Translations under genes and position numbers: made by a program | Part shown: positions 1,730 to 27,456 of the stretch, in pieces | Layout of the letters: each line of letters begins with the position of its first letter | Numbering within the stretch: position 1 is the first letter of the stretch | The notes under the pieces: model-generated | Seen by the model: the letters and a program-made list of their open reading frames with translations, nothing else | Database searches by the model: none | What the model was told of the DNA's origin: nothing | NCBI GenBank assembly: GCA_937872895.1 | Contig: CALMUP010000005.1 | Span: 1 to 64,000, forward strand | Length of the DNA: 64,000 nucleotides | Origin: an uncultured Verrucomicrobiota bacterium | Lineage (GTDB): Bacteria; Verrucomicrobiota; Kiritimatiellia; CAIVKH01 | Direction of reading: 5' to 3'

Positions 1730-4700
1730 TCAGCGATAGGCAGACATGCTGATCTGTTGCTGCATCATCTGCACAAGCTCCCGGATCACCTCGTGATACG
1801 CGATCATCGCGCCCGGAGTCCGGATCGAATCGTTCGATGAGATGCGGAACGAGGGCCGGTACCGACCCCTTCGCCGGGCATCGCCTTCCATCTTTTTCTC
1901 CTCCTCGAGACGTTGCGCGCTGGCCGCCAAGGGATACACCTGCTTAGGCGGTTCAGGGACCTTCGCCCGGGTCGCCTCGACGACCCGCCACAAGGCGCGC
2001 AGGTCGTGCACCTGATCGATGTCCGGTCGCCCGTGGCGGGACAACGGATCAAGCCGTAACGCCGTGAAGACCACGGCATCCCGATCCTCAACCGGAACCT
2101 GCATGTACTCCCCCAGTTCGCCCATCTTCTTCCACGCATTCAGGTAATCCGGCGCACGTTCCGTCGCCTGCCGGAACGAATCCAGCGCCTCCGCATAACG
2201 GCCCTGTTCCATCCGCAGGTATCCAAGCAGGTAATGGACCTGCGGCTTTTCCGGGTTCTGCTCGACCAGGGACGTGAAGACGCGCTCGGCGATTCCCTGC
2301 GCCCGCGGACTGTCAAACGCGCCTTCGCACCCGAAACAGTGACTTTCCACCTTCCCGAAACTGTCCGGCATCAACTCATAGGCTCGCTGGTAATGACGCT
2401 CCGCCTCGTCCAGGCGACCGAGCTCCTCCAGTTGAATCGCCATGCGCGACTGGATGCAATACGCATCGGCAAAATACCCCAACGCTTCCTCGTAGAGAGC
2501 CACCCCGCGCGCGATCAAGCCGGCGTCGTAAAACGCATCCGCCTCCTCCGACAACCGGATGGCCCGGATCACCCCGGCCAGGAATGCCGCCTGCTCACCG
2601 TCACCCTGCGCCTCGGCCATGGCACCCAACTCCTCGTACACGCGCATCCGGGTACCCCGACCCTGTTCACCATCCGACGGATCCACCGCAACGGCCTGTT
2701 GCGCCACGGCCTTGGCCGCATCCAGTTGACCGTCGAGCCGGAGCAGATGGGCTTTCCAGATCAACGGCCGTTCCTCGTATGGATCAAGCGCATACAGGCG
2801 GTCGAGGTGCTCCACTGCAGCCAGGCCCTTGATGGCCACGAACCGCTCATAGGCCGGATCATACCCGCCCCTGCGCAGCAGCTCCGCCTCGAGAATCCGT
2901 ACCGCCTCGGCTTCCCTTCCGGCGGCACGCAGGGCATCCGCAGCGATCACGGAAATCGACGGAAACGATTCGCTCTTTCCCCCGAAGCCATACCCGAAAT
3001 ACGACCCGGCGAGGTCGGCCAGATCGGCCACGCCCCACCACGGGTTGCGGTCGAGCAACACCACCACATCATCAAACCGCCCGGCGGCATGGTACAATCC
3101 CGCCAGCGTCGCCATATCCTGCATCATCCCGTAACTGGACATGAAGCCATAGTCTGAATCCCGGGCGGCCCGATGTTCCTTCAGGCTTTGCTGAAGCAGG
3201 GCCTCGGCCTCGGGTCCGCGTCCGGTCGCCACCAGCAGGTGGACCAGCGATGACACGTCGCTGCTCCCGAATCCGCGTTCCCGACCCGGCGCAAACAGCA
3301 AGGCCTGCGCGGCCGCCAGCCCTTCCTCGACCCAGGATTCCTGCTGCAACAGCCGACCCAGGCGGGCCAAGGTCAACCCGAGCTCAACCGCCGTTTCCTT
3401 CTGGTTGTTTACCGCATCGGCCAGACGCGAACGCAACAGCGCCACGCCTTCATCGACCTGATCAACGGCAAGGCGGGCATCCTGCAACAACGCATCGAGT
3501 TCCTCGCGCTGCTCCTGCGACACCTGCTCGCTCGCGGCGTACCGATCGACAAACGCCACCATCGCATCACCCTTCCCGAGTTTGACCGACACGTGCATGT
3601 AGTACTTCCAGAAGGGCCGGCCGGGATCCTCCTCCAGCACACGCTCCAGCCACTGCTGGACCTGCCCGGTGTAGCCGTATTGCTCCAATTGCCGGAACAC
3701 ATCATCAGACAGGACCTGCTCGCGCATCGTCTCGGGGATGGCCGCAGCGACGCGGTGCGCATCCTCGATCCGGTCGGCCACGATCAACCCGAGCAGGTAA
3801 TATCCCTGCGCCGTGCGAAATGCCCGCTGCCGCGGTGAACGCTCCAGATCGCGCGCGACCGAGCCGCGGACCGACCGGCTCAACGAACCCATGACCTGCC
3901 GGAACATCGTGTTCATGGTGACGAGTTCCTTGCCCGCCGGATCCTTGGCCACGTCGCCCTCCGGGAACGCCTGCTGCAACGCCTCGAACAGGTTCAGGCC
4001 ATCCAGGGAATGGGCCATCGCCCACTGCGGTGACCGCATCTGCGGCACCAGTTCCACGGCGAGTTCACGGGCCAATTGTTTGGTCGCCGATCCGTGGCGG
4101 ATGGTTACCGTCGTGTTCGGAAGCACCAGGGCCTGCCGCAGCAAACGCTCCGCCTCCTCAGCCCCCAGCAGGGTCACCAGGTCGGGAAGCTGGAGTTCCT
4201 CCTCGTCCTCGTCGCCCACCTGACGCGCCGCGATGTCCTGCTCGAGAAAAGCCACCACCATCGACGCATCACCGGCAATCAACGCCTTTGCCTTCATGAC
4301 CTTGACGACGTGATCGACCAGGTAGGAACCAAACCCCTCCTTGCCTTCATCCCCAAGGCGCTTGATCAGCGACTCCGCCTCGGTCATGAAAGCACCGGTC
4401 TGCCCGGTCAGCGTATGGACCAGCATCCGCAACAGGGATTCCAGGGACCGCCGGGCCGGGTCCTTCGGTTCGGGACGGGCATCGACCAATCCCGCCAACG
4501 CATCCCACGCTTCGGGCGACGGCAAGGCCAGGATCAGCCGGGCCATGGACGGCGCCTGATCCTCGGACGATGCGAACGCGACCAGATCCTGGCGTCGAAG
4601 GGAAAGCAACCGGTCATACAAGTCCAGCCAGGCGCGGGCCGCTTCATCCGCAGCAAGCGCGGAAGCGCCATCCTCCAACGCCTTCAGGTCATTCAGCCAG

Positions 4701-4843
4701 ACGGTGGCACCATCGGCCTTCTCCACCGGAGCAGGCTCGACCGCCAACGAAGCCAGCAGCTTTTCCGCGCCCAGGTAGTCGGCCCATCCGGCACCCGCTC
4801 CCATCAAACCGAGCAACACCCATCCACACGTACGCATCCTCAT
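1730..4843 (-). CDS. Large secreted TPR-repeat protein (1037 aa)
   Basis: N-terminal signal peptide (MRMRTCGWVLLGLMGAGAGWA); long coherent ORF with recurring TPR-like A/L/Y/G helical repeats. Confidence 0.7.
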   Translation of the reverse strand: MRMRTCGWVLLGLMGAGAGWADYLGAEKLLASLAVEPAPVEKADGATVWLNDLKALEDGASALAADEAARAWLDLYDRLLSLRRQDLVAFASSEDQAPSMARLILALPSPEAWDALAGLVDARPEPKDPARRSLESLLRMLVHTLTGQTGAFMTEAESLIKRLGDEGKEGFGSYLVDHVVKVMKAKALIAGDASMVVAFLEQDIAARQVGDEDEEELQLPDLVTLLGAEEAERLLRQALVLPNTTVTIRHGSATKQLARELAVELVPQMRSPQWAMAHSLDGLNLFEALQQAFPEGDVAKDPAGKELVTMNTMFRQVMGSLSRSVRGSVARDLERSPRQRAFRTAQGYYLLGLIVADRIEDAHRVAAAIPETMREQVLSDDVFRQLEQYGYTGQVQQWLERVLEEDPGRPFWKYYMHVSVKLGKGDAMVAFVDRYAASEQVSQEQREELDALLQDARLAVDQVDEGVALLRSRLADAVNNQKETAVELGLTLARLGRLLQQESWVEEGLAAAQALLFAPGRERGFGSSDVSSLVHLLVATGRGPEAEALLQQSLKEHRAARDSDYGFMSSYGMMQDMATLAGLYHAAGRFDDVVVLLDRNPWWGVADLADLAGSYFGYGFGGKSESFPSISVIAADALRAAGREAEAVRILEAELLRRGGYDPAYERFVAIKGLAAVEHLDRLYALDPYEERPLIWKAHLLRLDGQLDAAKAVAQQAVAVDPSDGEQGRGTRMRVYEELGAMAEAQGDGEQAAFLAGVIRAIRLSEEADAFYDAGLIARGVALYEEALGYFADAYCIQSRMAIQLEELGRLDEAERHYQRAYELMPDSFGKVESHCFGCEGAFDSPRAQGIAERVFTSLVEQNPEKPQVHYLLGYLRMEQGRYAEALDSFRQATERAPDYLNAWKKMGELGEYMQVPVEDRDAVVFTALRLDPLSRHGRPDIDQVHDLRALWRVVEATRAKVPEPPKQVYPLAASAQRLEEEKKMEGDARRRGRYRPSFRISSNDSIRTPGAMIAYHEVIRELVQMMQQQISMSAYR

Positions 4844-4997
4844 GGCAGACCCTCCTTGCCTTGTTTACGAACGAATCACCTCCACCTGCACATCAACGCG
4901 GACCGGTAACGGTGCTGAGCGATGGATCAGCACCCCCTTGCTGCATCCGACAACCGCCGGACCGGCCATCAGCGGACGAACCCGCCGGGATCACGGG

Positions 4998-5381
4998 TCA
5001 GAAGATCGAGTTGTCTTCTTCCTTCCAACGTACCGTAACCGGATGAATGGTATCCTTCATGAAGTCGATGGTCAGCGAGCCCGGCTTCTGGTTGTCCTTT
5101 TCAGCATTCGTGAACTTCACCTTGTGCGTGCCGGTCGGGACATCGTAGTCGCGGGTTTCGCCCGGAGCGACCGTGCCCAGGTAGTCGCCATCGAAATAGA
5201 CATTCGTGATGTCGTCCGACACGATCACGCGCAGGGTTGATTCGCCGGAGATGGCGACCGGTGCACCCGGCTTGTTATCCTTGTCCTCGCCGCCACCACT
5301 GTCGCAGCCAACCCCCATGGCAGACACCAACATCATGCCCAGCACCACCACCGACCTCAACCAGGGACCACGGACCTTCAT
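4998..5381 (-). CDS. Putative lipoprotein (hypothetical)
   Basis: Signal peptide ending ...AMGVGC, then a Cys; small beta-rich periplasmic-looking domain. Confidence 0.5.
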   Translation of the reverse strand: MKVRGPWLRSVVVLGMMLVSAMGVGCDSGGGEDKDNKPGAPVAISGESTLRVIVSDDITNVYFDGDYLGTVAPGETRDYDVPTGTHKVKFTNAEKDNQKPGSLTIDFMKDTIHPVTVRWKEEDNSIF

Positions 5382-5420: not shown

Positions 5421-6854
5421 TCAAGCGACTCCGCCAGGCGCGGCCGGTTTCGCAGGCGCGGCCGCCGCGGCCTTCGGATCTTCGATCACCCGGCCCAGGT
5501 ACGCGGGCAATTCGACGCCGGCCATCGCGGCAATGTCCTGCAGGGGCGGCACGCTCTTGATCAGGTTCGAGACGAAGTTGGACGTGGAGGAACCCTTGCC
5601 GTCACCCGCCCCGGAATCCCAGACGGTGATCTTGTCGATCTTCAGCTTGCTGATCGCCTCGACCTGGCGGGCCACCAGATCCTCGAGTTTCTCGACGAGC
5701 AGGAAGGTCGCAGCCGCCTTGGCGTCGCCGCCGCAACTCTCGACCAGCACCTGGTAACCCGCCGCCTTGCCTTCCAGCACCTGCTGCACACCCTTGGCCT
5801 CGGCCTCGAACTTCATCAGGATTGCATCGGCATCGCCCCGCGCCTCGCGGCGCACCTTCTCGGCATTCGCCTCGGCCATGATCTCGATGTTGCGCTTCTC
5901 GATCTCGCGCTTCACCACTTCCTCGGCGGTCAGGCGCTCCTGCTCGGCCCGGTACTGCGCCTTCTGGATCTCCACCATCGCTTCGCGCTTGGCCACTTCG
6001 GAAAGCTGCATCGCCGCCGCCTGCTTGACCACCAGGGCGGCATTGGCATCGGCAATGTTCGCCCGGGCCTTGTTTTCGCCCTCGACCGCCTCGGCCTCCT
6101 GTCCCTCGACATAGATACGCTGCATCGCCTCGGCCTTCTTTTCGCCCTTCGCCGCCTCGGCCAGGTTCTCGGCCACGCGGATGGTCCGCACCCGCACCGC
6201 CTCGGCCTCGCCGATCGCACCGGTCTTGTCCTGTTCAGCCACATCGACCTTGGCGCGGTTGATCGCCTCCGCCGCCGCCTTCTTGCCGATGCTCTCGATG
6301 TACTGCGACTCGTCGGTGATGTCGGTAATGTTGACGTTGATCAGGTACAACCCGACCTTGTTCAGCTCGGGCTCGACGTTCTTGCGGATCGACTCGAGGA
6401 AGCTTTCGCGGTCCTGGTTGATCTGCTCGATGGTCAGGGACGCGACGGTCAGGCGGAGCTGGCCGAAGATGATCTCCTTCACCATGTCCTCGATCGCATG
6501 CTTGGGCAGCCCGAGCAAACGCTCGGCCGCATTGTTCATGATCGACGGATCGGTGCTGATACCGACGGTGAACGTGCTGGGCACGTTGATGCGGATGTTC
6601 TGGAGCGACAGCGCATTCTGCAGCGGGATCCCGATGGTCATCGGCGTCAGGCTCAGGAACGCATAATCCTGGATCAACGGCCACACCAACGCACCGCCAC
6701 CGTGCATACAGACACTCGACTGGTTGCCGGACACCTTGCCGTAGATGACCAGGATCTGGTCCGACGGACACCGCTTGTACCGGGTGGCCAGGAAGACCAC
6801 GGTGGAAATAATCAGGACGGCAAAGGCAATAATGATCAACGGCCACATATCCAT
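5421..6854 (-). CDS. Flotillin-family SPFH/band-7 protein (YqiK-like)
   Basis: N-terminal TM (MDMWPLIIIAFAVLIIS), SPFH domain, long Ala/Glu/Lys-rich coiled-coil region. Start placed at ATG 6854 with a GAGGAG RBS; the ORF-track start at 6953 is likely an over-extension. Confidence 0.85.
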   Translation of the reverse strand: MDMWPLIIIAFAVLIISTVVFLATRYKRCPSDQILVIYGKVSGNQSSVCMHGGGALVWPLIQDYAFLSLTPMTIGIPLQNALSLQNIRINVPSTFTVGISTDPSIMNNAAERLLGLPKHAIEDMVKEIIFGQLRLTVASLTIEQINQDRESFLESIRKNVEPELNKVGLYLINVNITDITDESQYIESIGKKAAAEAINRAKVDVAEQDKTGAIGEAEAVRVRTIRVAENLAEAAKGEKKAEAMQRIYVEGQEAEAVEGENKARANIADANAALVVKQAAAMQLSEVAKREAMVEIQKAQYRAEQERLTAEEVVKREIEKRNIEIMAEANAEKVRREARGDADAILMKFEAEAKGVQQVLEGKAAGYQVLVESCGGDAKAAATFLLVEKLEDLVARQVEAISKLKIDKITVWDSGAGDGKGSSTSNFVSNLIKSVPPLQDIAAMAGVELPAYLGRVIEDPKAAAAAPAKPAAPGGVA

Positions 6855-16958: not shown

Positions 16959-17513
16959 ATGACCACACGCCGGACATGCGGAATGGTTCTATGGGCGGTG
17001 GCCGCCGCGGCACTGGTCGCATGGATGGTTCGTCCGGGCGAACCGGAGACACCTGCGCCGATGGTCCTCTCCCATCCGACACCCGACACCCCGCCGTCCC
17101 CGACCACCTCCGCGCCCATCGAACCACCACCGCCCGCTCCTGAACCGGTCATCGCGGACTTCGCCGCCGACCTCGAGCGGGCCGTGCTCGATGCCGAAAA
17201 CCCGGAGGCGCACCGGCAGGCGGTCGAGCAGGTCCTGTTCTTCTACCGCCGCGCCTTCGGGGAAAATCCGGTCGGTCAGAACGAGGACATCACCGCCGCC
17301 CTGCTCGGGGCCAACCCGCAACGCCTCGCCTTCCTGCCGCACGGCAGCGCCGCCATCGCCAACGGTCAACTTGTCGACCCGTGGGGCACGCCCTACTGGT
17401 TCCACTCGCTCAGCGGCCAGCAGATGGAAATCCGCAGCGCCGGCCCCGACCGTGAGCTCTTCACCCCCGACGATGTCGGCGAAGGCGGGGAGCCGGAGAA
17501 ACCGCGCGAGTAG
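16959..17513 (+). CDS. Membrane-anchored Pro-rich protein with pseudopilin (GspG)-like C-terminal motif
   Basis: N-terminal TM, PT-rich linker, C-terminal '..NGQLVDPWGTPYWFHSLSGQQMEIRSAGPDRELFTPDD' resembling the GspG/type IV pilin globular C-terminus, but no prepilin GFTLIE motif. 11 bp after the DUF1501 gene. Confidence 0.5.
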   Translation: MTTRRTCGMVLWAVAAAALVAWMVRPGEPETPAPMVLSHPTPDTPPSPTTSAPIEPPPPAPEPVIADFAADLERAVLDAENPEAHRQAVEQVLFFYRRAFGENPVGQNEDITAALLGANPQRLAFLPHGSAAIANGQLVDPWGTPYWFHSLSGQQMEIRSAGPDRELFTPDDVGEGGEPEKPRE

Positions 17514-17532
17514 TGCGGAAAAGAAATGATTC

Positions 17533-17568
17533 AACCACCCGCTTCGCGGGTGGTTGATTTCTTCTCCC
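17533..17568 (+). terminator. Rho-independent terminator
   Basis: Perfect hairpin CAACCACCCGC-TTCG-GCGGGTGGTTG followed by ATTTCTTCTCC. Confidence 0.75.
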
Positions 17569-17583
17569 AATTCCTGGAAACAC

Positions 17584-17610
17584 AAACCGGCCGGCTTTCC
17601 AAGGTCTGGA
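17584..17610. repeat. Partial (27 nt) copy of the groEL terminator/att sequence (copy A)
   Basis: aaaccggccggctttccaaggtctgga is identical to the starts of the 160-bp repeats at 18391 and 25763, then diverges; corresponds to half of the terminator hairpin (break in the loop). Confidence 0.8.
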
Positions 17611-17670
17611 CCGCCTCCTTGACACACGTACTATGGTCACACATACTATGTGGATACCTGGAGCTTTCTC

Positions 17671-17898
17671 ATGAAAAACGTGACCCTTGCCATGGACGAG
17701 GATTTGCTGGAGGCCGGACGGGCCTATGCCCGGGCCCACAACACCTCGCTGAACAACCTGATCCGGGAGTCCTTGCGCCGGACAGTGATCAAGGAAGCAC
17801 GCGCGACGTGGGCCGGCGAGTTCCTTGCCGTGGCCGACAAGGTAAAGGGCGACTCGCGCGGCAAGACCTGGAAACGGGAGGAGCTGTACCGTGGCTAA
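17671..17898 (+). CDS. Type II antitoxin (VapB-like)
   Basis: Small ORF (MKNVTLAMDEDLLEAGRAYARAHNTSLNNLIRESLRR) typical of antitoxins; overlaps the downstream PIN gene by 8 nt. ATG 17671 preferred over GTG 17650. Confidence 0.6.
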   Translation: MKNVTLAMDEDLLEAGRAYARAHNTSLNNLIRESLRRTVIKEARATWAGEFLAVADKVKGDSRGKTWKREELYRG

Positions 17899-18310
17899 GC
17901 GCGGCAAGGTGTTCATCGACACCAACCTGTTCATCTACGCGTTGGACCGGCGTGTTCCCGCCAAACGCAAGGCGGCCGCGAAGGCGTTGCGCGCGATCGA
18001 GGCGGAGGGCAACGGGGTGGTTTCCACCCAGGTGTTCCAGGAGGCGTACGTCGCGGGCACGACCAAGCTCGGTATCGCACCGCAGGACATGAAGCAGGCC
18101 ATCGTCTCCCTGCGCACGCTCGAAGTGGTGCAGGTGGATGTCGACCTGATCCAGGCCGCCATCGACTGCAGCATCCTGCAGCGGCTCTCCTTCTGGGATT
18201 CCCTGATCATCGTCGCCGCCGAAAAAGCCCGCTGCACCGAACTGTGGACCGAAGACCTCAACCACGGCCAACGCATCCAAGGCATCCGGATCCACAACCC
18301 GTTCATGTAG
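17891..18310 (+). CDS. vapC: PIN-domain toxin (VapC-like)
   Basis: PIN-domain residues (FIDTNLFIYALD ... TEDL..); overlaps the upstream antitoxin; GTG start. Confidence 0.8.
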   Translation: MAKRGKVFIDTNLFIYALDRRVPAKRKAAAKALRAIEAEGNGVVSTQVFQEAYVAGTTKLGIAPQDMKQAIVSLRTLEVVQVDVDLIQAAIDCSILQRLSFWDSLIIVAAEKARCTELWTEDLNHGQRIQGIRIHNPFM

Positions 18311-18380
18311 TTCACGGATCCGAGCGGCGGTGACGCGATGACCCGGTGACACTAGGGCGTCACGAAGTCATCGCGCCACC

Positions 18381-18428
18381 TCGATACAAAAAACCGGCCG
18401 GCTTTCCAAGGTCTGGAAAACCGGCCGG
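18381..18428 (-). terminator. Duplicated copy of the groEL intrinsic terminator
   Basis: On the minus strand: CCGGCCGGtTTTCCAgaccTTGGAAAgCCGGCCGG followed by TTTTTTT. Confidence 0.7.
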
Positions 18429-18550
18429 TGAATCAGAACGCGTTCGCGTCAGATCTTAGTACATGTCGCCCATGCCGCCGCCCGGTGGCATGGCGGGAGC
18501 TTCCTTCTTCTCGGGAATCTCGGTGATCATGCACTCGGTGGTCAGGAGCA
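18391..18550. repeat. 160-bp direct repeat, left copy (attL-like); terminator plus 3' end of groEL
   Basis: 100% identical by eye to 25763-25922. Confidence 0.9.
18456..18550 (-). pseudogene. Displaced groEL 3' fragment (last ~31 codons, ...[13 protein letters not shown])
   Basis: Identical to the real groEL 3' end at 25828-25922; lacks the rest of the gene. Confidence 0.85.
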
Positions 18551-18579
18551 AGACGAAACTCGACCCAACAAATTGAGCA

Positions 18580-21500
18580 TCACATTTTGATCGTTTTTTG
18601 TAACCAGTCGCCCTGAAGGATTAACTTACCACCGGACAGAAGCAGATCTATTTGGCTGTCAATAAGCTCCCTAAGCGCAGGCCCAGTAACGCTGAAGCCG
18701 AGAAAACGAGCTACGGCACTGGGTAACTCCTCACGGCGAGCACCATGCCCTGCATCTACAAACACCATAATTGCCTCCTGCACTTCAGGTGGTGGCAGGT
18801 ACTCGGGCTTCCTCAGTGTCGAGGAAGAAGTGCTCACCCGACTTCTGGGCTTAACCGGTGCACCCGGGATACTGAGGAACCCATTACTACGAACGCATCG
18901 CTTTTGGGTTAACAGTGTATGCACGGAATTTCCTACGGCGCTTTGAATTCGCGCTCCAGCCCGACTCAGACCCCACAATCCGCGAATGCGCACGACAACC
19001 TCATCTTCATGAATGGGTCCTTCAATGCTCACAATCCGGTGAACGATATCTCCGAGCTCTCGGGGGGACAGAAGATGGATTTCTTTTTTCGGCACCGCGA
19101 ACTTGGCTTCCTCATAGATAACTGCCGTCAATTCGGATGATCGTTCGTCTTTCGAAATGGCCAACACCTCACGCGAAATACCTGCGTCATCGCTAGCCGA
19201 TACTCTGACCGATACGATGGGCGCAGCGGCTACCTCTTCGCTTTGTGCAATATTTTTAGCTTTTTGAATTGCTGACTGGATTTTCCGGAGCTCATCAGTT
19301 CTACGCTGGAACCAATCCGTGCTCCATACCCGATGAATGATCCATCCATGATTCTCCAGGACCGCTTGCCGAAGCCGATCGCGCTCTCTCGCTGAACGCG
19401 ATGAATGGTATGATGCCCCATCGCATTCGATCCCCAGTATGTATCGGCCATGCAACTCCTGATCAACGACGGCAAGATCGATAAAAAATCCGGCAATACC
19501 GACCTGACTATGAACCTCGTAACCCAACGACTCTACAGCGCGGCGAATGGACTCTTCGAGGGGCGATTGCTCCAGCTTGCCCGAAGGTGCCGCCAACGAC
19601 ATACGACCCGTTCTTGCGAAGGAAAGAAACGCCTTTAATGCTGCCACACCCCGACCAGGTGCGCGCTCAAGATCAATTTGATCCTCGGTTATGCTTGAAA
19701 AGACTTCACATCGCGTTTTGGCGCGCGAGATCAGGACGTTTAAACGTCTTTCCCCACCCTCGGCATTGAGCGCGCCAAACGTCATTGCCATGTACCCGTT
19801 TTCATCAGGGCCATATCCTACCGACAAAAAAATAACATCCCGCTCATCACCCTGAACGTTTTCCAGATTCTTGACAAAAAACGGTTCAGACTCGTGACCA
19901 TAGAAGAAACCTTCGAGGTCTGGGTGCTCGCGACGCAAGAGTTCCAGTTCATCCAGGATGGCCTGACGCTGTTTGATGGAGAATGCGGCAACGCCTAAGC
20001 TCAATTGCGGCGTTTTTCGCGCATGCTCAATTACCGCCTTGGCAACGACCCTCGCCTCAACGCGATTAACGGCAGCACGACCACGCTCAAAGACTCCATC
20101 AGGAACATGGTTGAATTTTAGCCCAAGACCAGCAGCTGCGGAATGTGGACTGGGGACAATAAACAGGCGGTCCTCATAGAATTCATGGTTCGATACGGCA
20201 ATCAGCGTATGATGCCGACTTCGGTAATGCCAGCGAAGCATTTTGGAGGGGATCCCGCGCGCGAGGCAAAGACCGAGAATACTCTCCATGTCGCCAGCTT
20301 GTACAATATCCTGAGGGACCTCCTCGTCCTCTTCTTCAGATCCGTTCGTCATTCGCTGGAAAAACCGGGTTGGCGGAAGCTGTTTGCTATCACCCACGAC
20401 AACAATCTGTTTGCTTCTCGCAACTGCGCCCAGCGCATCAACGGGTTGAACCTGACTCGCCTCGTCAATAACCAGTAAGTCAAACTCGACAGCACCCGCC
20501 TCAAGAAATTGCGCGACGGATAGAGGACTCATCATAAACACGGGTTTAATGGCCTGAATGACTGAACCGCAGTCTTTCAGCAAACGCCTAACCGGGCGAT
20601 GCCCGCGCTGACGCTCCATTTCACCGCGAAGGATTCCCGAGGGCCCCACCCCAACGAACGCTGGCATCTTGCTGAAATGAGCATGCAAGACCCGGTACTT
20701 GGCAAGCGTCAGTCGCGCTTTATCCATTTCCTTGAAGTCGTTTACATGTGTGTTGTGCAAGGCGCCATCAAACCGCGCAATGTTCGGCTTATCCTTGACG
20801 ATTCGCCGAAAGATTTCGGCATAATAGGCATGGTCGAAAACCGCACCGGCAACTTTTGGCGTAAGCCGGCCGGAGTCGAGCTCCGTAACGATGGGTGAAA
20901 GCCCGTTTTCAAGCGCGTCTCGGCGTAGCAAGTAGTATGAATTCCATTCAGAAAGCGAATCAAGCCTGATGAGCCACGTAGCGCCACGATCGCGCAACAT
21001 ACTCAGGGGCACATCTTCCTGCTGAATAACATTAAACGACTCCTGCCAATCAAGCCTTAACTCGGCCTCCACAACCGATCGAGCCGCGCAAAATGCTGCA
21101 GCCTTGGCGCGTACAGAGTCAACTGTGGATCGCAACGCTTCAGGACGCTCCTGGACTACCGCAAACACCTCGCGGAAATCAGCGTCCAGTCCGACCGCCT
21201 GCTGTTCATCCACCCACTGAATGATTGCATGAAGCTTTTCACAATCCGAGTCCGCTCCCTGCCAGTTCGACCCGAACACGGCACGTCCATATTCCTCGTT
21301 CGCGGTGATTTCCTTGAGGATGCGCTGCCCCTCGATGATTTGATCAACTCGCCCGAGAAGATTCCTGGGCAGCTTTGTGGATGGATTTTTCAGCGCACCA
21401 CGCAAGGTGGCCACCGAACGTCGATAACTCCCATTCAGGAATCGGAAAAATGAAGTGCCGTGAGATGCAACCGGACCCCGAACATCAGAGAAGTCTTTTT

Positions 21501-23361
21501 GCCAAGCATCATCCACAACAAGCGGTTCCACATTGCGAAGTTCTTTATAGCGCTGAAGGCTCGCCACCAACTTTATGATTTTGTCGCCGTCGGTATCCCA
21601 TGCCGGGTTCTTGATTGCGCTTCGATCAAGGTATTCCGGGGCTTTCGCCATAAACTCCGCAATTACACAGTATGACTCCACTTCCGTCGTTGAATCGGGA
21701 ACATCCTGCTTAATCATGGAAGCTAGTCGGCCGGCCTCAGCCAGAAGGGTTTGCAGGTGCTCGTTCATCCTCGCGATTACGTCGCGAATGCCGGTTAGAT
21801 CTATCTGCAGCACGGTTTCTCGACGGACGCCACGCCATAGGTGCTGGCACGGGGGGCCGATATGCTCTATTCGACTGACGACCTGCTGGAGCAACGATCG
21901 GCGCAGAGCGGCCACATCGGCGTTCCATTCGGGAGCATCGGGAAGCGACAATCGTGAATATTCAGAAGGAACATCCGGGAGTGCGGACAGGGCTCCCATC
22001 GCGCGAAAGGCCGATACATTGGTGTTTCCGTACGGTTCGTGCAGAGTGTTGCTATGCATCGACAACACACTACGCAGGCGCTCGAGTTTAGGTAGAATTG
22101 ACTCCAGTTTCGCCATGTCGGGACGGGTTAACTGCCAGGTCCGCCCGATTTCGTTAATCACCGCTCGCTTGCTGGTCTTGTTGCTGTGCAGCTCAAGGCA
22201 AAGATCGCCAAGCCCTTCTCGCTCCATACGTCGCTTAACGACCTCAAGTGCGGCCAGTTTTTCGGCTACAAAAAGCACTTTCTTTCCATCCATCACCGCC
22301 GTCGTGATGATATTGGTAATCGACTGACTCTTCCCTGTCCCGGGCGGCCCCTGAATAACCAGCAGTTGATTTTTGCGAACGGTCTCGATGGCAATGGCTT
22401 GCGAACTGTCGGCATCGACGACGTGGTCTAATCGGTCCACAGAAATCAGTTCATCAAGATTGGCATTGTCGGGAATCGGATCGCCCTTTACGGCAAATCC
22501 ATCCTGCAAAAGCCCTGTAATCAGTGGGTGACCATGAATCTTCTTTTCACCCGGCCAGCTCTCTGGATTCAGGTCACGGTACATCAGGAATTTCGCGAAG
22601 GAGAAAAAGCCGAGCGTAATGGCGTCCGGAAGGACTTCCCATCGTTTGGCCGACTCAACCACCCGCGCCACCGATGCGAAATACTCGGCAGGCACAAGTG
22701 ACTCCTCGTCTGGAAAGGATGGCAGGGTAATTCCGAATTCGGCCAACAGTTTTTCGGAAAGCGAGTAATTCTGGAGAATTTCCTCTTCCCTCCAGCGCAA
22801 GATCAAGCGATCCGACACCGTCCGACGACTTAACTCGACCGGGACCAGAATCAAAGGAGCAAAGCGCTCTATATCCGAAGATTCACTCTCGAACCACTTC
22901 AGTTGCCCCAGGGCCAGGTACAAGACATTAACGCCTTGTTCTTCGATCATCGCCTCTGAGTCACGGTACAAGTCGATCAATCGGCGCTGTAACCCCTCGG
23001 GCGAGAGTGCGGTCTGCAGCCGTAGATCAATATGCCGCTTGGCCGTGCCATTTGATTCAATCTCATCCTCGTTCGGAATCGGCACACCAATTTCGTCATC
23101 GGCACCCTCCTCGCCCTCTTTATCCTGACCATCCTGCTCTTTCTGCTTGCCGGGGAGAAAACTCAGCGCCTTTTTCTCGGTCACGAGCAGGCGATACACC
23201 TCGGAGGCCTGTTCGTCATAAACATTGACAAATCGGCCTGTTTTTAGCGGGATCGACAGCAACCTGTTGCGGCAGGACAAGTCGAGCAATAACCGGCGCG
23301 CCTGATTAAGGATTTCCAGCGATTTAGATCCCATAGCTGGCAAACTTAATGCAGCGTACAC
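18580..23361 (-). CDS. DUF4011 / SF1 helicase (AAA_11 + AAA_12) / Vsr-DUF559-like endonuclease / DUF3320 protein (Hhe-like architecture)
   Basis: N-terminal DUF4011 signature (..[15 protein letters not shown]..); Walker A '[11 protein letters not shown]'; helicase C-terminal '[16 protein letters not shown]'; Vsr/DUF559-like nuclease core '..FFIDLAVVD....[43 protein letters not shown]'; DUF3320-like C-terminus. Start may be ATG at 23334 rather than GTG at 23361. Confidence 0.85.
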
Positions 23362-23608
23362 ACCCCGCGCAACACTAGTCTTCTGGAGCGCAAGTGGCCA
23401 ACCTATAGATAAGACATCTCACACCGCGTGCGTTTGCAGTACAGGCAAGAAAACATAGAATAAAATGGATCCATGAAGGAGGAATCCTAAAAGTCTGACC
23501 TGCCTAGAAGTCGGTAGATCCTCACGTCTCGCAGAACTCATTTCGACGTTTTCACCCGCGCTTCAATACTCTAGTTATTGAAACCTTGTGGCCAGTCCCT
23601 GCGCTGCC

Positions 23609-24265
23609 CTAACTTCGACATATCACCAAATCTACGGGCACAACTCCTTCTATCGTTTTGATGAAATTGTCAACACGAGCATCGATGATAACGATGTCTT
23701 CTTTAATCCAGCCGAAATAGGATTTCTGTTGTTTCGTGAATCCAACATTCTGCATGAAGTCATCAATTTCGTTGTCGCTTGGGTGAGGAGATTTCTGGTC
23801 CATAGCAGTCCACCAAGGCTGTGAAATTACGAAACTCGGCTGATGACCATTTGCGGTAATCAAAAGCGATTTTCGCATTAGCAATCCTTCCAGACGTATA
23901 TCGGAGCGGAAAATCTCGTTCATCAACTGGATTCGCTGAAGATAAAATAATGGCGTCGCAGCCTTTTGAACGCCTTTCGGTTCTGGTGTTACGCCGAAAC
24001 ATCCGGCATAGGTTATTTTGAGAGCACGATTATCTGAAGTGCGATGAAACACCTCATGTTCGGCGGTAGCGATACCGTATTTTTTAAGTCCCTCGCAACA
24101 TCCCAAGGAGAGTACCGCGTTTTCAGCGGTTGCCCATTTGATTATACAATCGCTTTGTCGGTCAATTTCTTGCGAATCGCAATTGATGCCGACATTTGTA
24201 TATCCACTTGTTCGGAGGTAGGTGGCGGCTGATGCCGCAAGGCATCCATTTGTTGAATTAACCAT
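23609..24265 (-). CDS. Hypothetical protein (island cargo, 218 aa)
   Basis: Coherent ORF in the low-GC island; no recognisable domain. An in-frame stop lies 3 codons upstream of its ATG, so it cannot be a simple frameshift continuation of the upstream ORF; overlaps that ORF by 124 nt. Confidence 0.45.
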   Translation of the reverse strand: MVNSTNGCLAASAATYLRTSGYTNVGINCDSQEIDRQSDCIIKWATAENAVLSLGCCEGLKKYGIATAEHEVFHRTSDNRALKITYAGCFGVTPEPKGVQKAATPLFYLQRIQLMNEIFRSDIRLEGLLMRKSLLITANGHQPSFVISQPWWTAMDQKSPHPSDNEIDDFMQNVGFTKQQKSYFGWIKEDIVIIDARVDNFIKTIEGVVPVDLVICRS

Positions 24266-24897
24266 GATGGAGCACTAGGTTTTTGAGCGGGATCAAGATG
24301 AGTAACCTCCGCCTTGTTCCAAAATTCTTCAAACCGGGCCTCCAAGTCTCGTCCCATTTGGGGCTCATTGAAAAAAACCTCGGCTTTGATCGTGTCCGCC
24401 GGGCTATCCGGTGCCAATTCACCGTGCAGCTTCTCTAGACGGACTATTTTGGAGTCGCACACAATGAAATGTTGCAGCTTTTCCTTTGCCTTTAGCCGTG
24501 CAAGGGTGAACGTGCCTGCGAATTCATGCGCAAGTGCCACTAACCATTCAGGATAATCCGGCGCAATTACAATCATGCGGGCTGTACCGCTTGCTTTTTG
24601 TACGCGTTGCAATGCATCCGTCAGATGCCTCAACAAAGCAGCGTAAAAGCCACCGCAACCGCATCCAGTAACAATATTTATGCTTTTGTGCGTGTGAAAA
24701 AGCATCGTCTCTGTGTATTCCAGAGCGTCAGGATAACAATCGTTTTCCAACTTAATGGTCTCACCCTTCTCGAGGACAGCACCGACAATATCTTTCAAGC
24801 AGTGAGACGGATTGGCAGCTTTCGCCTTATAATTTGAAATCGCCTGCGCGATTGTCATGCTTCCCGCTTCATTTCTTTGTTGCTGGCTCATCATCAA
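24142..24897 (-). CDS. Hypothetical protein (island cargo, 251 aa)
   Basis: Coherent ORF in the low-GC island; Gly/Cys-rich segment IVTGCGCGGFYAALL; no recognisable domain. Confidence 0.5.
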   Translation of the reverse strand: MMMSQQQRNEAGSMTIAQAISNYKAKAANPSHCLKDIVGAVLEKGETIKLENDCYPDALEYTETMLFHTHKSINIVTGCGCGGFYAALLRHLTDALQRVQKASGTARMIVIAPDYPEWLVALAHEFAGTFTLARLKAKEKLQHFIVCDSKIVRLEKLHGELAPDSPADTIKAEVFFNEPQMGRDLEARFEEFWNKAEVTHLDPAQKPSAPSWLIQQMDALRHQPPPTSEQVDIQMSASIAIRKKLTDKAIV

Positions 24898-25751
24898 CCC
24901 TTTTCACTCAAAAAAGAGACGCGCTTGGTATCAAAAATGCTCAAAAAGGCAGTACAAAAACGACTATGCTTCAGCGCAAGAATGGGGTAAGCACAAAATC
25001 TCGTGTACAACCCTATGGAATGCATTCGTGTACCAGTAATTGGCCATGGTATTTCCCATCGATACACTTATAGACTAAACACATTTACATACTAATCGAG
25101 CATAGCGCAGAGTAAAGGGAAAATGGGCTACCATTGCTCAAAATTACTCTGACGAGTGGCTTGGATTCTTTACCTCGCTTCACAAAGTTGACAACAAAGC
25201 CCCAAAAAGTAATACATAATTCACACGTATTCAAATACTTGCAACAAGAATGCCCCCTCGACAACTCAAGGCTACCGCGTTGAGTATCCGCCTACTGGAG
25301 CAAGAGCACCCACGCAACATGATAGCCTAGTTCTGACAGTGTTTACTTCGCTGCGGCAAGTATGGGCAAATCCTTCACGTTCGCCTTGATGACCAGCCGC
25401 ATCAAGCAGGCGGCTAAAAGATTCTTCACCTTACCGGACGTCCACTATTGGGCCTTGACCGACGACATCGCGACGATCCTCTCTTGGCTTTCCCAATGGA
25501 AGCACCCGCCCCCGCCCAATCAAGAAAGAAGATCCATTCAACGCAAAATGGCATGGCGTTTCAATTACCCCGAAACGGGATTGTCTCACCTGTAACATTC
25601 TGACTTGCAATCAAATGCGACTTTCCGGCATTCGTTGTGACTGTATCGACATAAACACGCTCACCAAACAAACTTCAGGGTTCGCGCCCACTATGAATCC
25701 AAAGCTGGATCGTTGCATCTCTCGACTATTTCCAATAAACCATCTTCCAAG

Positions 25752-25800
25752 TCTTGTAAAACAAACCGGCCGGCTTTCCAAGGTCTGGAAAACCGGCCGG
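25752..25800 (-). terminator. groEL rho-independent terminator
   Basis: Minus strand: CCGGCCGGtTTTCCAgaccTTGGAAAgCCGGCCGG followed by TTTGTTTT; 28 nt after the groEL stop. Confidence 0.8.
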
Positions 25801-25827
25801 TGAATCAGAACGCGTTCGCGTCAGATC

Positions 25828-27456
<1,629 letters not shown>

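Follow-up and report, generated by a model that had tools for sequence, protein, structure and literature searches.

A vapBC operon between a partial and a complete copy of the groEL terminator at a recombination hotspot of an uncultured Kiritimatiellia lineage

The intergenic region between groEL and a convergent gene for a T2SSG-like protein is a long-lived hotspot of recombination in a Kiritimatiellia/Verrucomicrobiota lineage. In the window, by which we mean the whole 64-kb stretch of DNA analysed here, the native flank is followed by a partial copy of the groEL terminator and by vapBC; then come a full copy, the 7.2-kb island, a second full copy and groEL. We think it fairly probable that vapBC was joined to this site long ago and the cargo of the island later, by site-specific tandem accretion at an attB, and that the resulting array then spread by homologous recombination. 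The sequence examined of this genome comprises the window and about 10 kb beyond groEL. The features of the locus, with the evidence for each, are as follows:

16983..17513, + strand: T2SSG-like (pseudopilin-G-like) gene of the native left flank, 176 aa (184 aa from an upstream ATG at 16959); open reading frame, weak Pfam T2SSG match
17531..17557, unstranded: bidirectional terminator hairpin of the T2SSG-like gene; −29.8 kcal/mol, z −6.5
17558..17583, unstranded: native spacer between the two terminators, here called flank25; alignment with the copy 3 side
17584..17610, unstranded: copy 1, truncated groEL terminator that retains, in + strand reading, one complete arm, the loop and 4 nt of the other arm; exact match
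17619..17653, + strand: vapB promoter region; sigma-70-type motif, repeats
17671..17898, + strand: vapB, 75-aa RHH-like antitoxin; Pfam DUF6364
17891..18310, + strand: vapC, 139-aa PIN-domain toxin, GTG start; Pfam PIN
18329..18380, unstranded: second hairpin, arms of 22 nt, within the 74 nt that trail vapC; z −3.3
18391..18550, − strand: copy 2 (X'), in which the hairpin (18393-18429) is followed by a spacer (18430-18455) and by an orphan piece of the groEL 3' end, 95 nt with its stop codon (18456-18550); identity to 25763-25922, tblastn of GroEL
18551..25742, − strand: low-GC island, 7.2 kb; GC, GC3, profile matches
25743..25922, − strand: copy 3 (X), the 160-nt repeat preceded by a diverged flank25 (25743-25762); alignment, folding
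25828..27456, − strand: groEL, 542 aa; Cpn60_TCP1, 'chaperonin GroEL [Kiritimatiellia bacterium]'

The 176-aa call of the T2SSG-like gene is identical in public contigs, and groEL is preceded upstream by groES and dnaK. The region between the T2SSG-like gene and groEL measures about 116 nt, more than half of which is taken up by hairpins.

The 27-mer AAACCGGCCGGCTTTCCAAGGTCTGGA has exactly three copies in the window even when up to three mismatches are allowed (17584-17610, 18391-18417 and 25763-25789), all of them on the + strand, and 100 dinucleotide-preserving shuffles yielded 0 matches. The original prediction had named membership in a widespread REP-like family as the finding that would speak against it; with all copies at this one locus in 64 kb, the motif is neither of REP type nor a chance match. 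Copies 2 and 3 form the first 27 nt of a perfect direct repeat of 160 nt (18391-18550 and 25763-25922, 160/160 identical), which can be extended to 166 nt with 2 mismatches and has a sharp end at 18550/25922. Within it come first the terminator hairpin of groEL, with arms of 16 bp around a loop of 5 nt (−39 kcal/mol, z about −5.5 to −7), then 26 nt of spacer, and finally the closing 95 nt of the groEL gene with its stop codon. In copy 2 the arms lie at 18393-18408 and 18414-18429 and the loop at 18409-18413. The groEL gene takes its working 3' end and its terminator from copy 3.

Alignment of the three copies bore out the claim that the 27 nt at 17584-17610 are identical to the start of both 160-nt repeats, and likewise the claim that only a vapB/vapC pair with an 8-nt overlap lies between the partial copy and the left repeat. 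The divergence of copy 1 had been placed exactly in the loop of the hairpin; this is wrong, as it sets in 4 nt past the loop, within the second arm. The similarity of copy 1 to copy 3 reaches about 20-25 nt into the flank outside the hairpin (89.6% over 48 nt, 17563-17610 against 25743-25789), and diverged copies of flank25 precede the full hairpin at 25743-25762 and also the middle copy in sister contig L095. Copy 1 no longer folds (z −0.24; copies 2 and 3 reach −5.5 and −7). It is a truncated groEL terminator, namely the distal half of the original, to which the native flank is still attached; in sister contigs L006 and L095 this flank leads into a full hairpin and groEL. The direct repeats that bound the island are 160 nt long, perfect and include the 3' end of the target gene groEL; those around vapBC amount to 27 nt exact or the 48 nt of imperfect similarity. 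From start to start, the island repeats are spaced 7372 nt apart. A search across the window for further degenerate att copies found none. The motif GGTC(T/A)GGA, which adjoins both 17610 and 18550, was considered as a break-point signal and rejected, since junctions in L091 and L095 are without it.

The two genes between copies 1 and 2 are predicted to form a working type II toxin-antitoxin operon. We base this on a PIN domain scoring above cut-off, invariant acidic residues, low dN/dS, a promoter and the pairing of the toxin with a vapB-like gene in most related loci. VapC matches the Pfam PIN family PF01850 over residues 7-123 with 36.9 bits (cut-off 23.6), and in an alignment of 78 sequences its residues D10, E51, D103 and D122 (also E121) are invariant. 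Metagenome loci with VapC relatives have a vapB-like gene upstream in 73 of 80 cases. Values of dN/dS across three lineages (0.05-0.10 for vapB, 0.09-0.24 for vapC) indicate purifying selection, and GC3 is host-like in both genes (0.83 and 0.89, respectively, with host genes at 0.83-0.95).

The vapB promoter has a −35 element TTGACA (17619-17624) and a −10 element CATACT (17642-17647) at a spacing of 17 nt, giving 10 of 12 matches where 0.2 would be expected by chance. It contains two 13-nt direct repeats CACAC(G/A)TACTATG (17623-17635 and 17638-17650), which are likely to be the VapB operator, and the promoter stretch with these repeats is conserved in L087, L090 and L093. By homology, VapC would act as a PIN ribonuclease and the RHH protein VapB as its neutralising partner; VapB probably regulates its own operon through the two promoter repeats, and the 8-nt overlap probably couples the translation of the two genes.

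In the order of antitoxin and toxin, the overlap of the genes, the four acidic PIN residues, the repeated putative operators in the promoter and the small RHH-like antitoxin (RHH or AbrB in known systems), the operon resembles VapBC type II systems in general. It differs from known ones in that the antitoxin's match to DUF6364 barely exceeds the cut-off (27.7 bits against 27.3) and a FitA-like RHH match is weak, making the RHH assignment marginal, and in that the closest solved structure to the toxin, PcrIIC1, is distant (E 0.002). None of the VapC relatives elsewhere (78 loci, 40-57% identity) adjoins groEL, so that this toxin-antitoxin family is not tied to an element that targets groEL.

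The island between copies 2 and 3 has a GC content of 0.51 and a GC3 of 0.43-0.56, compared to 0.83-0.95 in host genes, which marks it as foreign. It holds a helicase-nuclease gene of 1584 or 1593 aa (18580-23334 or 23361), a kinase-PolyVal-like open reading frame (23609-24265), a 251-aa open reading frame without assigned function (24142-24897) and 845 nt of non-coding DNA. The helicase-nuclease matches the PADLOC model PDC-S37 with 1812 bits over residues 16-1588; its NCBIfam ProA match, with 1470.4 bits, stays below the cut-off of 1500 and covers model positions 359-1902 only, and its Hhe match reaches 1024 bits against a cut-off of 2000. From these profile matches, the cargo is predicted to be a PDC-S37/ProA-like anti-phage helicase-nuclease accompanied by two further open reading frames. 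Rfam matches, tRNAs and informative small open reading frames were absent from the island and its non-coding end, and inspection of this 845-nt end by the same means revealed no visible remnant of an integrase. Searches of viral contigs found no relatives of the 251-aa and kinase-like proteins.

Comparison with sister contigs allowed us to arrange the joints in time. The junction of the half hairpin with CCGCC(T/G)CC-TTGACA is also present in L093 and L095 (99% identity) and in L087 (about 88%), where the hairpin half carries several substitutions. The synonymous divergence between the window and L087, a sister species, is 0.33 for vapB and 0.37 for vapC, compared to 0.27 for the neighbouring DUF1501 gene. 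The junction is old, since it is common to L087, the dS of vapBC is at least at the level of DUF1501, and GC3 is host-like. In L090, GGACCnCnnCCTTGACA is joined directly to the T2SSG stop codon, and because it is retained there, this arrangement derives by deletion from the junction of half hairpin and vapB.

The DNA between vapC and groEL is younger and variable, as judged from its foreign GC3 and from three distinct cargos in the window, in L090 and in L093/L095. The joint between X' and the helicase gene is common to the window and L095, and the two sequences part beyond 23354. In L093/L095, a module of about 755 nt, encoding a Zn-ribbon protein and a small open reading frame, sits in the first arm of the post-vapC hairpin (window position 18342), and L087, L092, L093 and L095 have a palindromic insertion in the loop of the T2SSG-like terminator. 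The original prediction of at least two successive events is therefore upheld by a junction shared with a sister species next to strain-variable DNA, and its proposal that the toxin-antitoxin pair is the remnant of an older element fits the old junction, the host-like GC3 and the variable cargo.

The variants comprise vapBC with each of three different islands, vapBC with unrelated neighbours and one locus with another insertion. The vapBC operon is the only part retained in every variant, while its neighbours turn over. The series of occupancies proposed at the outset (none, toxin-antitoxin only, toxin-antitoxin plus island) did not emerge, as neither an empty nor a toxin-antitoxin-only allele was found among these variants. 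L006, with an identical GroEL followed by the hairpin and the T2SSG-like gene, was considered as an empty site and rejected after comparison with L095 and L093: it ends where L093 from the same sample ends, and its T2SSG-like gene is the duplicated, groEL-proximal copy B. An uninterrupted order of T2SSG-like gene, hairpin and groEL is thus seen in L006 and L095 only at the proximal end of the array. A DUF1501 scan of GTDB representatives for close relatives gave a single one (L007, 95%), whose contig stops short of the site.

L095 contains two copies of the T2SSG-like gene. Copy A is followed by a donor-type terminator with the palindromic insert and by the half hairpin. Copy B is near-full, lacking the first ~14 nt; over its first ~90 nt the identity with copy A drops to 80%, and beyond it lie the intact hairpin, a different spacer and groEL. 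Most simply, this looks like an array that entered by a homologous single crossover within the T2SSG-like gene, and not at the hairpin.

In an old first step, we propose, the groEL terminator took up DNA with the vapBC genes, alone or perhaps within a larger element that has since decayed. The native flank has kept the distal hairpin half (17584-17610), and the groEL side carries the complete series of flank, hairpin, spacer and groEL 3' end. In a later step, foreign low-GC cargo was added between vapC and groEL, where a further copy of the terminator and 3' end of groEL bounds it, and part of this cargo has since been exchanged between strains. In the window strain the middle full copy is identical to copy 3, although it differs in a sister strain, and this identity may reflect a recent event or gene conversion. 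The original joins most likely arose by site-specific tandem accretion at an attB overlapping the groEL terminator, through a recombinase that may have acted in trans or may since have been lost; the vapBC islet, with att-like repeats and no integrase, would then be a remnant resembling a cis-mobilisable element (CIME). Later spread between strains would have proceeded by homologous recombination, as the structure of L095 suggests. No cognate recombinase was identified anywhere, an absence that is compatible with a CIME but leaves it without its trans-acting partner. Also speaking against site-specific accretion are the differing break points within the hairpin, the structure of L095, the lack of an empty or toxin-antitoxin-only allele among the variants and the VapC relatives elsewhere, none of which adjoins groEL.

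Could general recombination account for the locus on its own? DNA fragments of related strains, circularised or linear, would have entered by RecA-dependent single crossovers of the Campbell type in any homologous segment that they carried, with the direct repeats as these segments, and the other joints would stem from illegitimate joining of ends at the terminators, whose long palindromes are fragile. Such a course of events is conceivable, yet on balance rather unlikely. Neither the island of the window nor the annotated cargo genes of the variants contain an integrase or other recombinase domain, and the repeats bounding the insertions vary in length (~12, 48, ~73, 160 and ~600 nt) and in their end points. 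These observations, together with the topology of L095, which is exactly what one crossover within the T2SSG-like gene would produce, favour general recombination, and they leave the term att, used for the copies in the original prediction, unproven. Homologous exchange must also be frequent at this locus, given the hybrid groEL genes of L095 and L001, and the vapBC and groEL genes of L090, which are far more diverged than its flank (dS 0.25-0.43 against 0.075), attest to allele swaps by homologous recombination. General recombination leaves unexplained, however, why the element-side copies bring along a ready-made groEL 3' end and terminator, a hallmark of elements that have the 3' ends of genes as their target. 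It also requires a first illegitimate event for every joint, and it does not explain the vapBC step, for which 27 to 48 nt of homology are too short for efficient integration by RecA. Moreover, the repeat pairs of 48 nt, ~73 nt, 160+25 nt and ~600 nt beside the two terminators all include flank25 and the first 13-17 nt of the hairpin, so that a single core site is possible.

A chromosomal recombinase might instead have placed modules without recombinases of their own (vapBC, Zn-ribbon, defence cargo) into palindromes, each insertion leaving a partial palindrome behind, by analogy to IMEX at dif and to pdif modules on Acinetobacter plasmids. Four separate insertions do lie in or at hairpins, none with its own recombinase; they affect the terminator of groEL in the window and in L091, the terminator loop of the T2SSG-like gene and the post-vapC hairpin. 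Hits by chance are to be expected, however, where hairpins make up most of such a short region, and the position of the break within the palindrome is not constant, following ...TCTGGA in copy 1 and CCGGCCGACTTT in L091. The GC-rich 16+5+16 palindrome is unlike dif when compared by eye with the consensus, and pdif-type sites are multi-copy, whereas this motif occurs at a single locus in 64 kb. We therefore regard such shuffling by a host recombinase as improbable, and we give about as little credence to the broader notion that defence and toxin-antitoxin arrays are built independently of integrases, through insertion of vapBC, Zn-ribbon module, helicase island and palindromic insert at terminator palindromes by a host-encoded or trans-acting hairpin-specific recombinase. 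If true, it would represent a chromosomal counterpart of pdif-module and IMEX shuffling, with terminators as sites and one partial palindrome per event. That the three copies lack a common history altogether, being either scattered members of a family of REP-like or terminator repeats or artefacts of assembly, is highly improbable. Metagenome assemblers do break or switch at repeats, as seen in contigs L092, L091 and L176, which end there, and in groEL 5' halves that switch between contigs; further, the search for dispersed copies in this genome covered only the 64 kb and the ~10 kb beyond groEL. Against this, the exact 27-mer is absent from three public collections (genome representatives, JGI metagenomes and viral contigs), a degenerate hairpin pattern matched only this locus among 175 fetched loci, and the similarity of the copies runs into non-palindromic flank. 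Independent assemblies of at least three samples, represented by ENA contigs, also show the same array, and the exact proteins of the window recur in two NCBI MAGs. The spacer sequence was not found in viral contigs.

Site-specific tandem accretion followed by homologous spread, which we favour, would make the array a familiar case of genomic-island build-up, unusual in its site and in having no integrase gene. Islands accreted in tandem, and CIMEs that have lost the integrase but kept attL and attR, have been described (PMC5704250), among others for ICESt1/ICESt3-type elements of Streptococcus thermophilus (reviewed in PMC5704250). The locus shares with these a decayed element without integration genes, target-site repeats at the borders and an array of gene, att, island, att, remnant and partial att. 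It differs in that no cognate integrase is known from any of the variants, that the exact part of the outermost repeat spans just 27 nt (48 nt if imperfect), that the remnant is a bare toxin-antitoxin operon of ~0.8 kb and that the host is an uncultured member of the Kiritimatiellia/Verrucomicrobiota.

Chaperonin genes are known as landing sites in other bacteria, and some staphylococcal pathogenicity islands integrate beside groEL. In Mycobacterium smegmatis, the 3' end of groEL1 is the attB of mycobacteriophage Bxb1 (PMC1470463), which thus also uses the 3' end of a chaperonin gene for the entry of foreign DNA. Bxb1, however, has its own serine integrase, a site of less than 50 bp, and disrupts groEL1, whereas at our locus groEL is intact, the repeat extends over 160 nt through the terminator and there is no integrase. 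A further report of groEL in an island (PMC6177240) concerns the gene as cargo only, not as an att site.

The locus also resembles defence-island hotspots with a toxin-antitoxin module at the edge, where a pair of conserved core genes encloses anti-phage cargo that turns over and the module is retained; in Shewanella, HipAB is said to stabilise a composite island. The original prediction had accordingly offered vapBC as an addiction module that stabilises the array. In contrast to edge modules of the HipAB type, vapBC lies outside the pair of repeats that would delete the island. The most likely deletion is the one between the 160-nt repeats, which removes the island and spares the toxin-antitoxin pair. 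vapBC can counter-select only deletions that include vapBC itself and cannot protect the defence island from loss, which makes it a persistent resident and not a stabiliser. Its persistence may reflect counter-selection of deletions that remove it, or its usefulness. With the toxin-antitoxin pair outside the repeats and the sole part kept in all variants, the locus clearly contradicts the widespread view that such a module at the border of an island stabilises it.

The findings indicate that the 3' end and terminator of groEL, which is among the most conserved bacterial genes, can act as a landing pad for repeated use by foreign DNA in a poorly studied, uncultured phylum, and that successive events can be traced in partial copies of its terminator. 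For annotation, the array is better described as an old vapBC operon next to a strain-variable PDC-S37/ProA-like defence island than as a single element. Users of metagenome-assembled genomes should be aware of breaks and switches in the assemblies, both at these repeats and within groEL.

Three occurrences of the groEL-terminator 27-mer AAACCGGCCGGCTTTCCAAGGTCTGGA were found in the window, at 17584, 18391 and 25763 (copies 1, 2 and 3), all on the plus strand; there were no further copies in the 64 kb at up to three mismatches, and shuffled sequences gave no matches. Copies 2 and 3 each form the first 27 nt of a direct repeat that is identical over 160 nt (18391-18550 and 25763-25922); allowing two mismatches lengthens it to 166 nt, and it has a sharp end at 18550/25922. 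Read in the sense of groEL, the repeat contains the final 95 nt of the gene, stop codon included, then a spacer of 26 nt and the terminator hairpin, whose 16-bp arms and 5-nt loop precede a run of T (−39 kcal/mol, z −5.5 to −7). The array comprises the following features.

Features of the array
17619-17647, sigma-70-type promoter (TTGACA, 17 nt, CATACT)
17671-17898, vapB, 75 aa
17891-18310, vapC, 139 aa, GTG start, 8-nt overlap with vapB
18329-18380, second hairpin, in the 74-nt tail after vapC
7.2-kb island between the 160-nt repeats, helicase-nuclease, 1584/1593 aa, domains DUF4011, AAA_11, AAA_12, MTES_1575 and DUF3320
same island, Kinase-PolyVal-like ORF, 218 aa (only 64 aa in public gene calls)
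same island, 251-aa ORF without a family match, overlapped by the Kinase-PolyVal-like ORF
25828-27456, minus strand, groEL

Copy 1 comprises a single hairpin arm, the loop and the adjoining 4 nt of the opposite arm, and has no fold (z −0.24). It had been described as diverging exactly in the loop, but the divergence lies 4 nt beyond it, in the second arm. Its match to copy 3 extends over 48 nt (89.6%), as the two also share some 20-25 nt of non-palindromic flank. The uninterrupted order of T2SSG-like gene (the native pseudopilin-G-like gene convergent with groEL), terminator, flank, full hairpin, spacer and groEL is seen in a sister locus, L006. As copy 1 is contiguous in the window with exactly the flank of this arrangement, it is the distal half of the ancestral groEL terminator. 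L006 itself was rejected as an empty site: it comes from the same sample as L093, adjoins that contig and forms the groEL-proximal end of an L095-type array.

The spacer between groEL stop codon and terminator (window 18430-18455 and 25802-25827; L006 11371-11396) occurs in two unrelated versions in near-identical strains, a gatctgacgcgaacgcgttctgattc-type in the window and L090 and tcgaacacggtaaacccgtctagatc in L006 and L095; the hairpin arm beside it also varies (TTTTCCA vs CTGTCCA). These differences may trace earlier exchanges there.

We also considered that the 27-mer might be a widespread REP-like motif. The search was negative within the 64 kb, among 175 fetched loci, where a degenerate hairpin pattern matched at the groEL-terminator locus only, and in three public collections, where the exact 27-mer had no matches. 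A similar groEL 3' end may be present at a second groESL locus.

Between copies 1 and 2, the vapB promoter is overlapped by two 13-nt direct repeats, CACAC(G/A)TACTATG. VapB matches DUF6364 (27.7 bits, cut-off 27.3) and, weakly, a FitA-like RHH; VapC matches the PIN domain (36.9 bits, cut-off 23.6), the solved structure nearest to it is a distant match (PcrIIC1, E 0.002), and its acidic residues D10, E51, D103 and D122 are invariant across 78 VapC sequences. GC3 is host-like in both genes (vapB 0.83, vapC 0.89; host genes 0.83-0.95), and dN/dS values of 0.05-0.10 for vapB and 0.09-0.24 for vapC reflect purifying selection since the half-hairpin/vapB junction formed. At 78 loci elsewhere, VapC relatives (40-57% identity) never adjoin groEL, so this toxin-antitoxin (TA) family does not belong to a dedicated groEL-targeting element.

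The 7.2-kb island is compositionally foreign, with a GC of 0.51 and a gene GC3 of 0.43-0.56, compared with 0.83-0.95 for host genes. Its helicase-nuclease matches the PADLOC candidate PDC-S37 over the full length (1812 bits), NCBIfam ProA without the first ~358 model positions (1470 bits, just below the cut-off of 1500), and also Hhe, so that the cargo (18580-24897, minus strand) looks like an anti-phage system. No recombinase, RNA family or tRNA was found in the island.

Sister contigs were obtained by exact-protein look-ups and compared via BLAST and junction listings. Two NCBI MAGs labelled Kiritimatiellia bacterium encode identical copies of the window proteins; the nearest GTDB representative is an uncultured Verrucomicrobia MAG.

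Sister loci compared with the window
L001-L005: array identical in arrangement
L093/L094/L095: half-hairpin and vapBC as in the window (99%); ~755-nt extra module (Zn-ribbon protein and small ORF) within the hairpin after vapC; joint of copy 2 and helicase as in the window, 98.6% up to window position 23354; beyond 23354, other cargo (Glycos_transf_3 protein), a second near-full T2SSG-like copy, intact hairpin, different spacer and groEL
L090: flanks 96.8% identical, vapBC only ~88%; cargo of AbiEii-like nucleotidyltransferase, 69-aa ORF and 339-aa coiled-coil-like ORF; then full hairpin, 35-nt repeat in 5.9 copies and groEL
L087: sister species (DUF1501 95% aa); half-hairpin/vapB junction as in the window, with substitutions within the hairpin half; downstream of vapBC, Rce1-like and Tricorn protease genes, not groEL
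L091: different insertion with an earlier hairpin break (CCGGCCGACTTT/...), then a second copy of the T2SSG terminator arm

In L087, vapBC is 88% identical to that of the window, with a dS of 0.33-0.37, close to the 0.27 of the flanking gene; in L090, its dS is 0.25-0.43, compared with 0.075 for the neighbouring gene DUF1501. Similarity of both to the window stops a few nucleotides before the vapC stop, at about 18301-18303. L090, where the vapB promoter is almost directly joined to the T2SSG stop codon, is a deletion derivative of the half-hairpin junction, since GGACCnCnnCCTTGACA is retained at the joint. By these comparisons, the junction is older than the split of the window lineage from L087, and the foreign, strain-variable cargo between vapC and groEL is younger. 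Recombination at the groEL terminator on no fewer than two occasions, separated in time, is therefore well supported, as originally proposed.

The proposal that the TA pair acts as an addiction module stabilizing the array fared less well, since vapBC lies outside the 160-nt repeat pair. A deletion between copies 2 and 3, which would be the easiest, would lose the defence island and leave the TA, which counter-selects only deletions that include it. The operon keeps an intact promoter and stop codon and is the only block common to all vapBC-bearing variants, while all sequence to its right changes; this matches a TA selecting only against its own deletion. The observation is confirmed, apart from the exact loop divergence, and its original interpretation is supported in part: successive events and a TA remnant stand, whereas the addiction module is not supported.

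The two full copies are identical (160/160) in the window and L001/L002; the L095 middle copy differs by CAG in place of AAA in the hairpin and by one extra 35-nt unit, suggesting that the copies of the window strain were homogenized or recently generated. This unit, CCGCGCCATGAAGTGAGCTTCGCTCTACTTCAGGG, occurs in 5.9 copies between groEL stop codon and terminator in L090 (5706-5912) and once in the L095 middle copy (reverse complement, ~6405-6440), and is absent from both window copies.

The groEL gene of L095 (5444-7072) is a hybrid, ~100% identical to the window over its last 460 nt and 52-88% over the first 1170 nt (76% aa overall), with Aminotran_3 and TetR as upstream neighbours vs dnaK in the window. 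L001 matches the window throughout, apart from 165 differences that all lie in the 5' half of groEL (L001 ~18600-19500; window 26500-27400). Hybrids are thus present in two independent assemblies and reflect either two groESL loci recombining or assembler switching at the common 3' end; they point to frequent homologous exchange, or such switching, at the locus.

The gene is followed by a repeat with its own 3' end, then by the island, a second repeat, the remnant and a partial repeat. Such a tandem array of island and TA remnant at a gene 3' end is of an already known type: tandem accretion with a decayed, integrase-less remnant (CIME, cis-mobilizable element) has this standard layout (PMC5704250). 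A groEL 3' end is also a known attB, that of phage Bxb1 (PMC1470463). Unusual here are the groEL terminator as target, the absent integrase and the uncultured host. We moderately favour an original site-specific accretion at the groEL terminator, which would have been followed by homologous spread between strains. A single core site is possible, because the repeat pairs bounding insertions beside the two terminators all contain flank25 (the native spacer 17558-17583 between the T2SSG-like gene's terminator and copy 1) and the first 13-17 nt of the hairpin.

Several findings count against site-specific accretion: neither the window island nor the annotated cargo genes of the variants yielded a recombinase, hairpin break points vary between insertions, and repeat lengths range from ~12 to ~600 nt. 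The hybrid groEL genes were counted on the same side, as was L095, whose topology is that of a homologous single crossover inside the T2SSG-like gene. This topology implies that a recipient whose site was empty took up the complete array in a single piece. Recombination of a general or illegitimate kind alone seems less likely to us than site-specific accretion, and a host-recombinase/hairpin-module model, REP or artefact explanations are more improbable still.

The ~755-nt module (L095, reverse complement, 5517-6272; L093 5512-6267) is inserted at the equivalent of window 18342, in the first hairpin arm, bounded by an imperfect ~12-nt repeat, TGAC(G/A)CGATGAC. It encodes a protein of 195 aa, whose zinc ribbon is of the topoisomerase type, and an ORF of 45 or 65 aa. 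In L090 (4931-5561, minus strand), the 143-aa AbiEii-like or NTP_transf_5-like nucleotidyltransferase (weak matches) and the 69-aa ORF directly downstream, with an 8-nt overlap, may be a second TA pair at this hotspot.

A palindromic, MITE-like insertion with the ends GCTAGAGGAAGAGGAG.../...CTCCTCTTCCTCTAGC, absent from the whole window, lies within the terminator loop of the T2SSG-like gene in several sister strains (L093 4605-4714; L095, reverse complement, 4610-4719; L087 ~4675-5300; contig ends of L092 and L091). Its length is ~110 nt in L093/L095 and ~620 nt in L087, and the frequent ending of contigs at it suggests that it is multi-copy in those genomes. The long L087 form contains an orphan groEL 3' fragment (5084-5190), 93% identical to window 25850-25955, with end points differing from those of the 95-nt fragment at 18456-18550.
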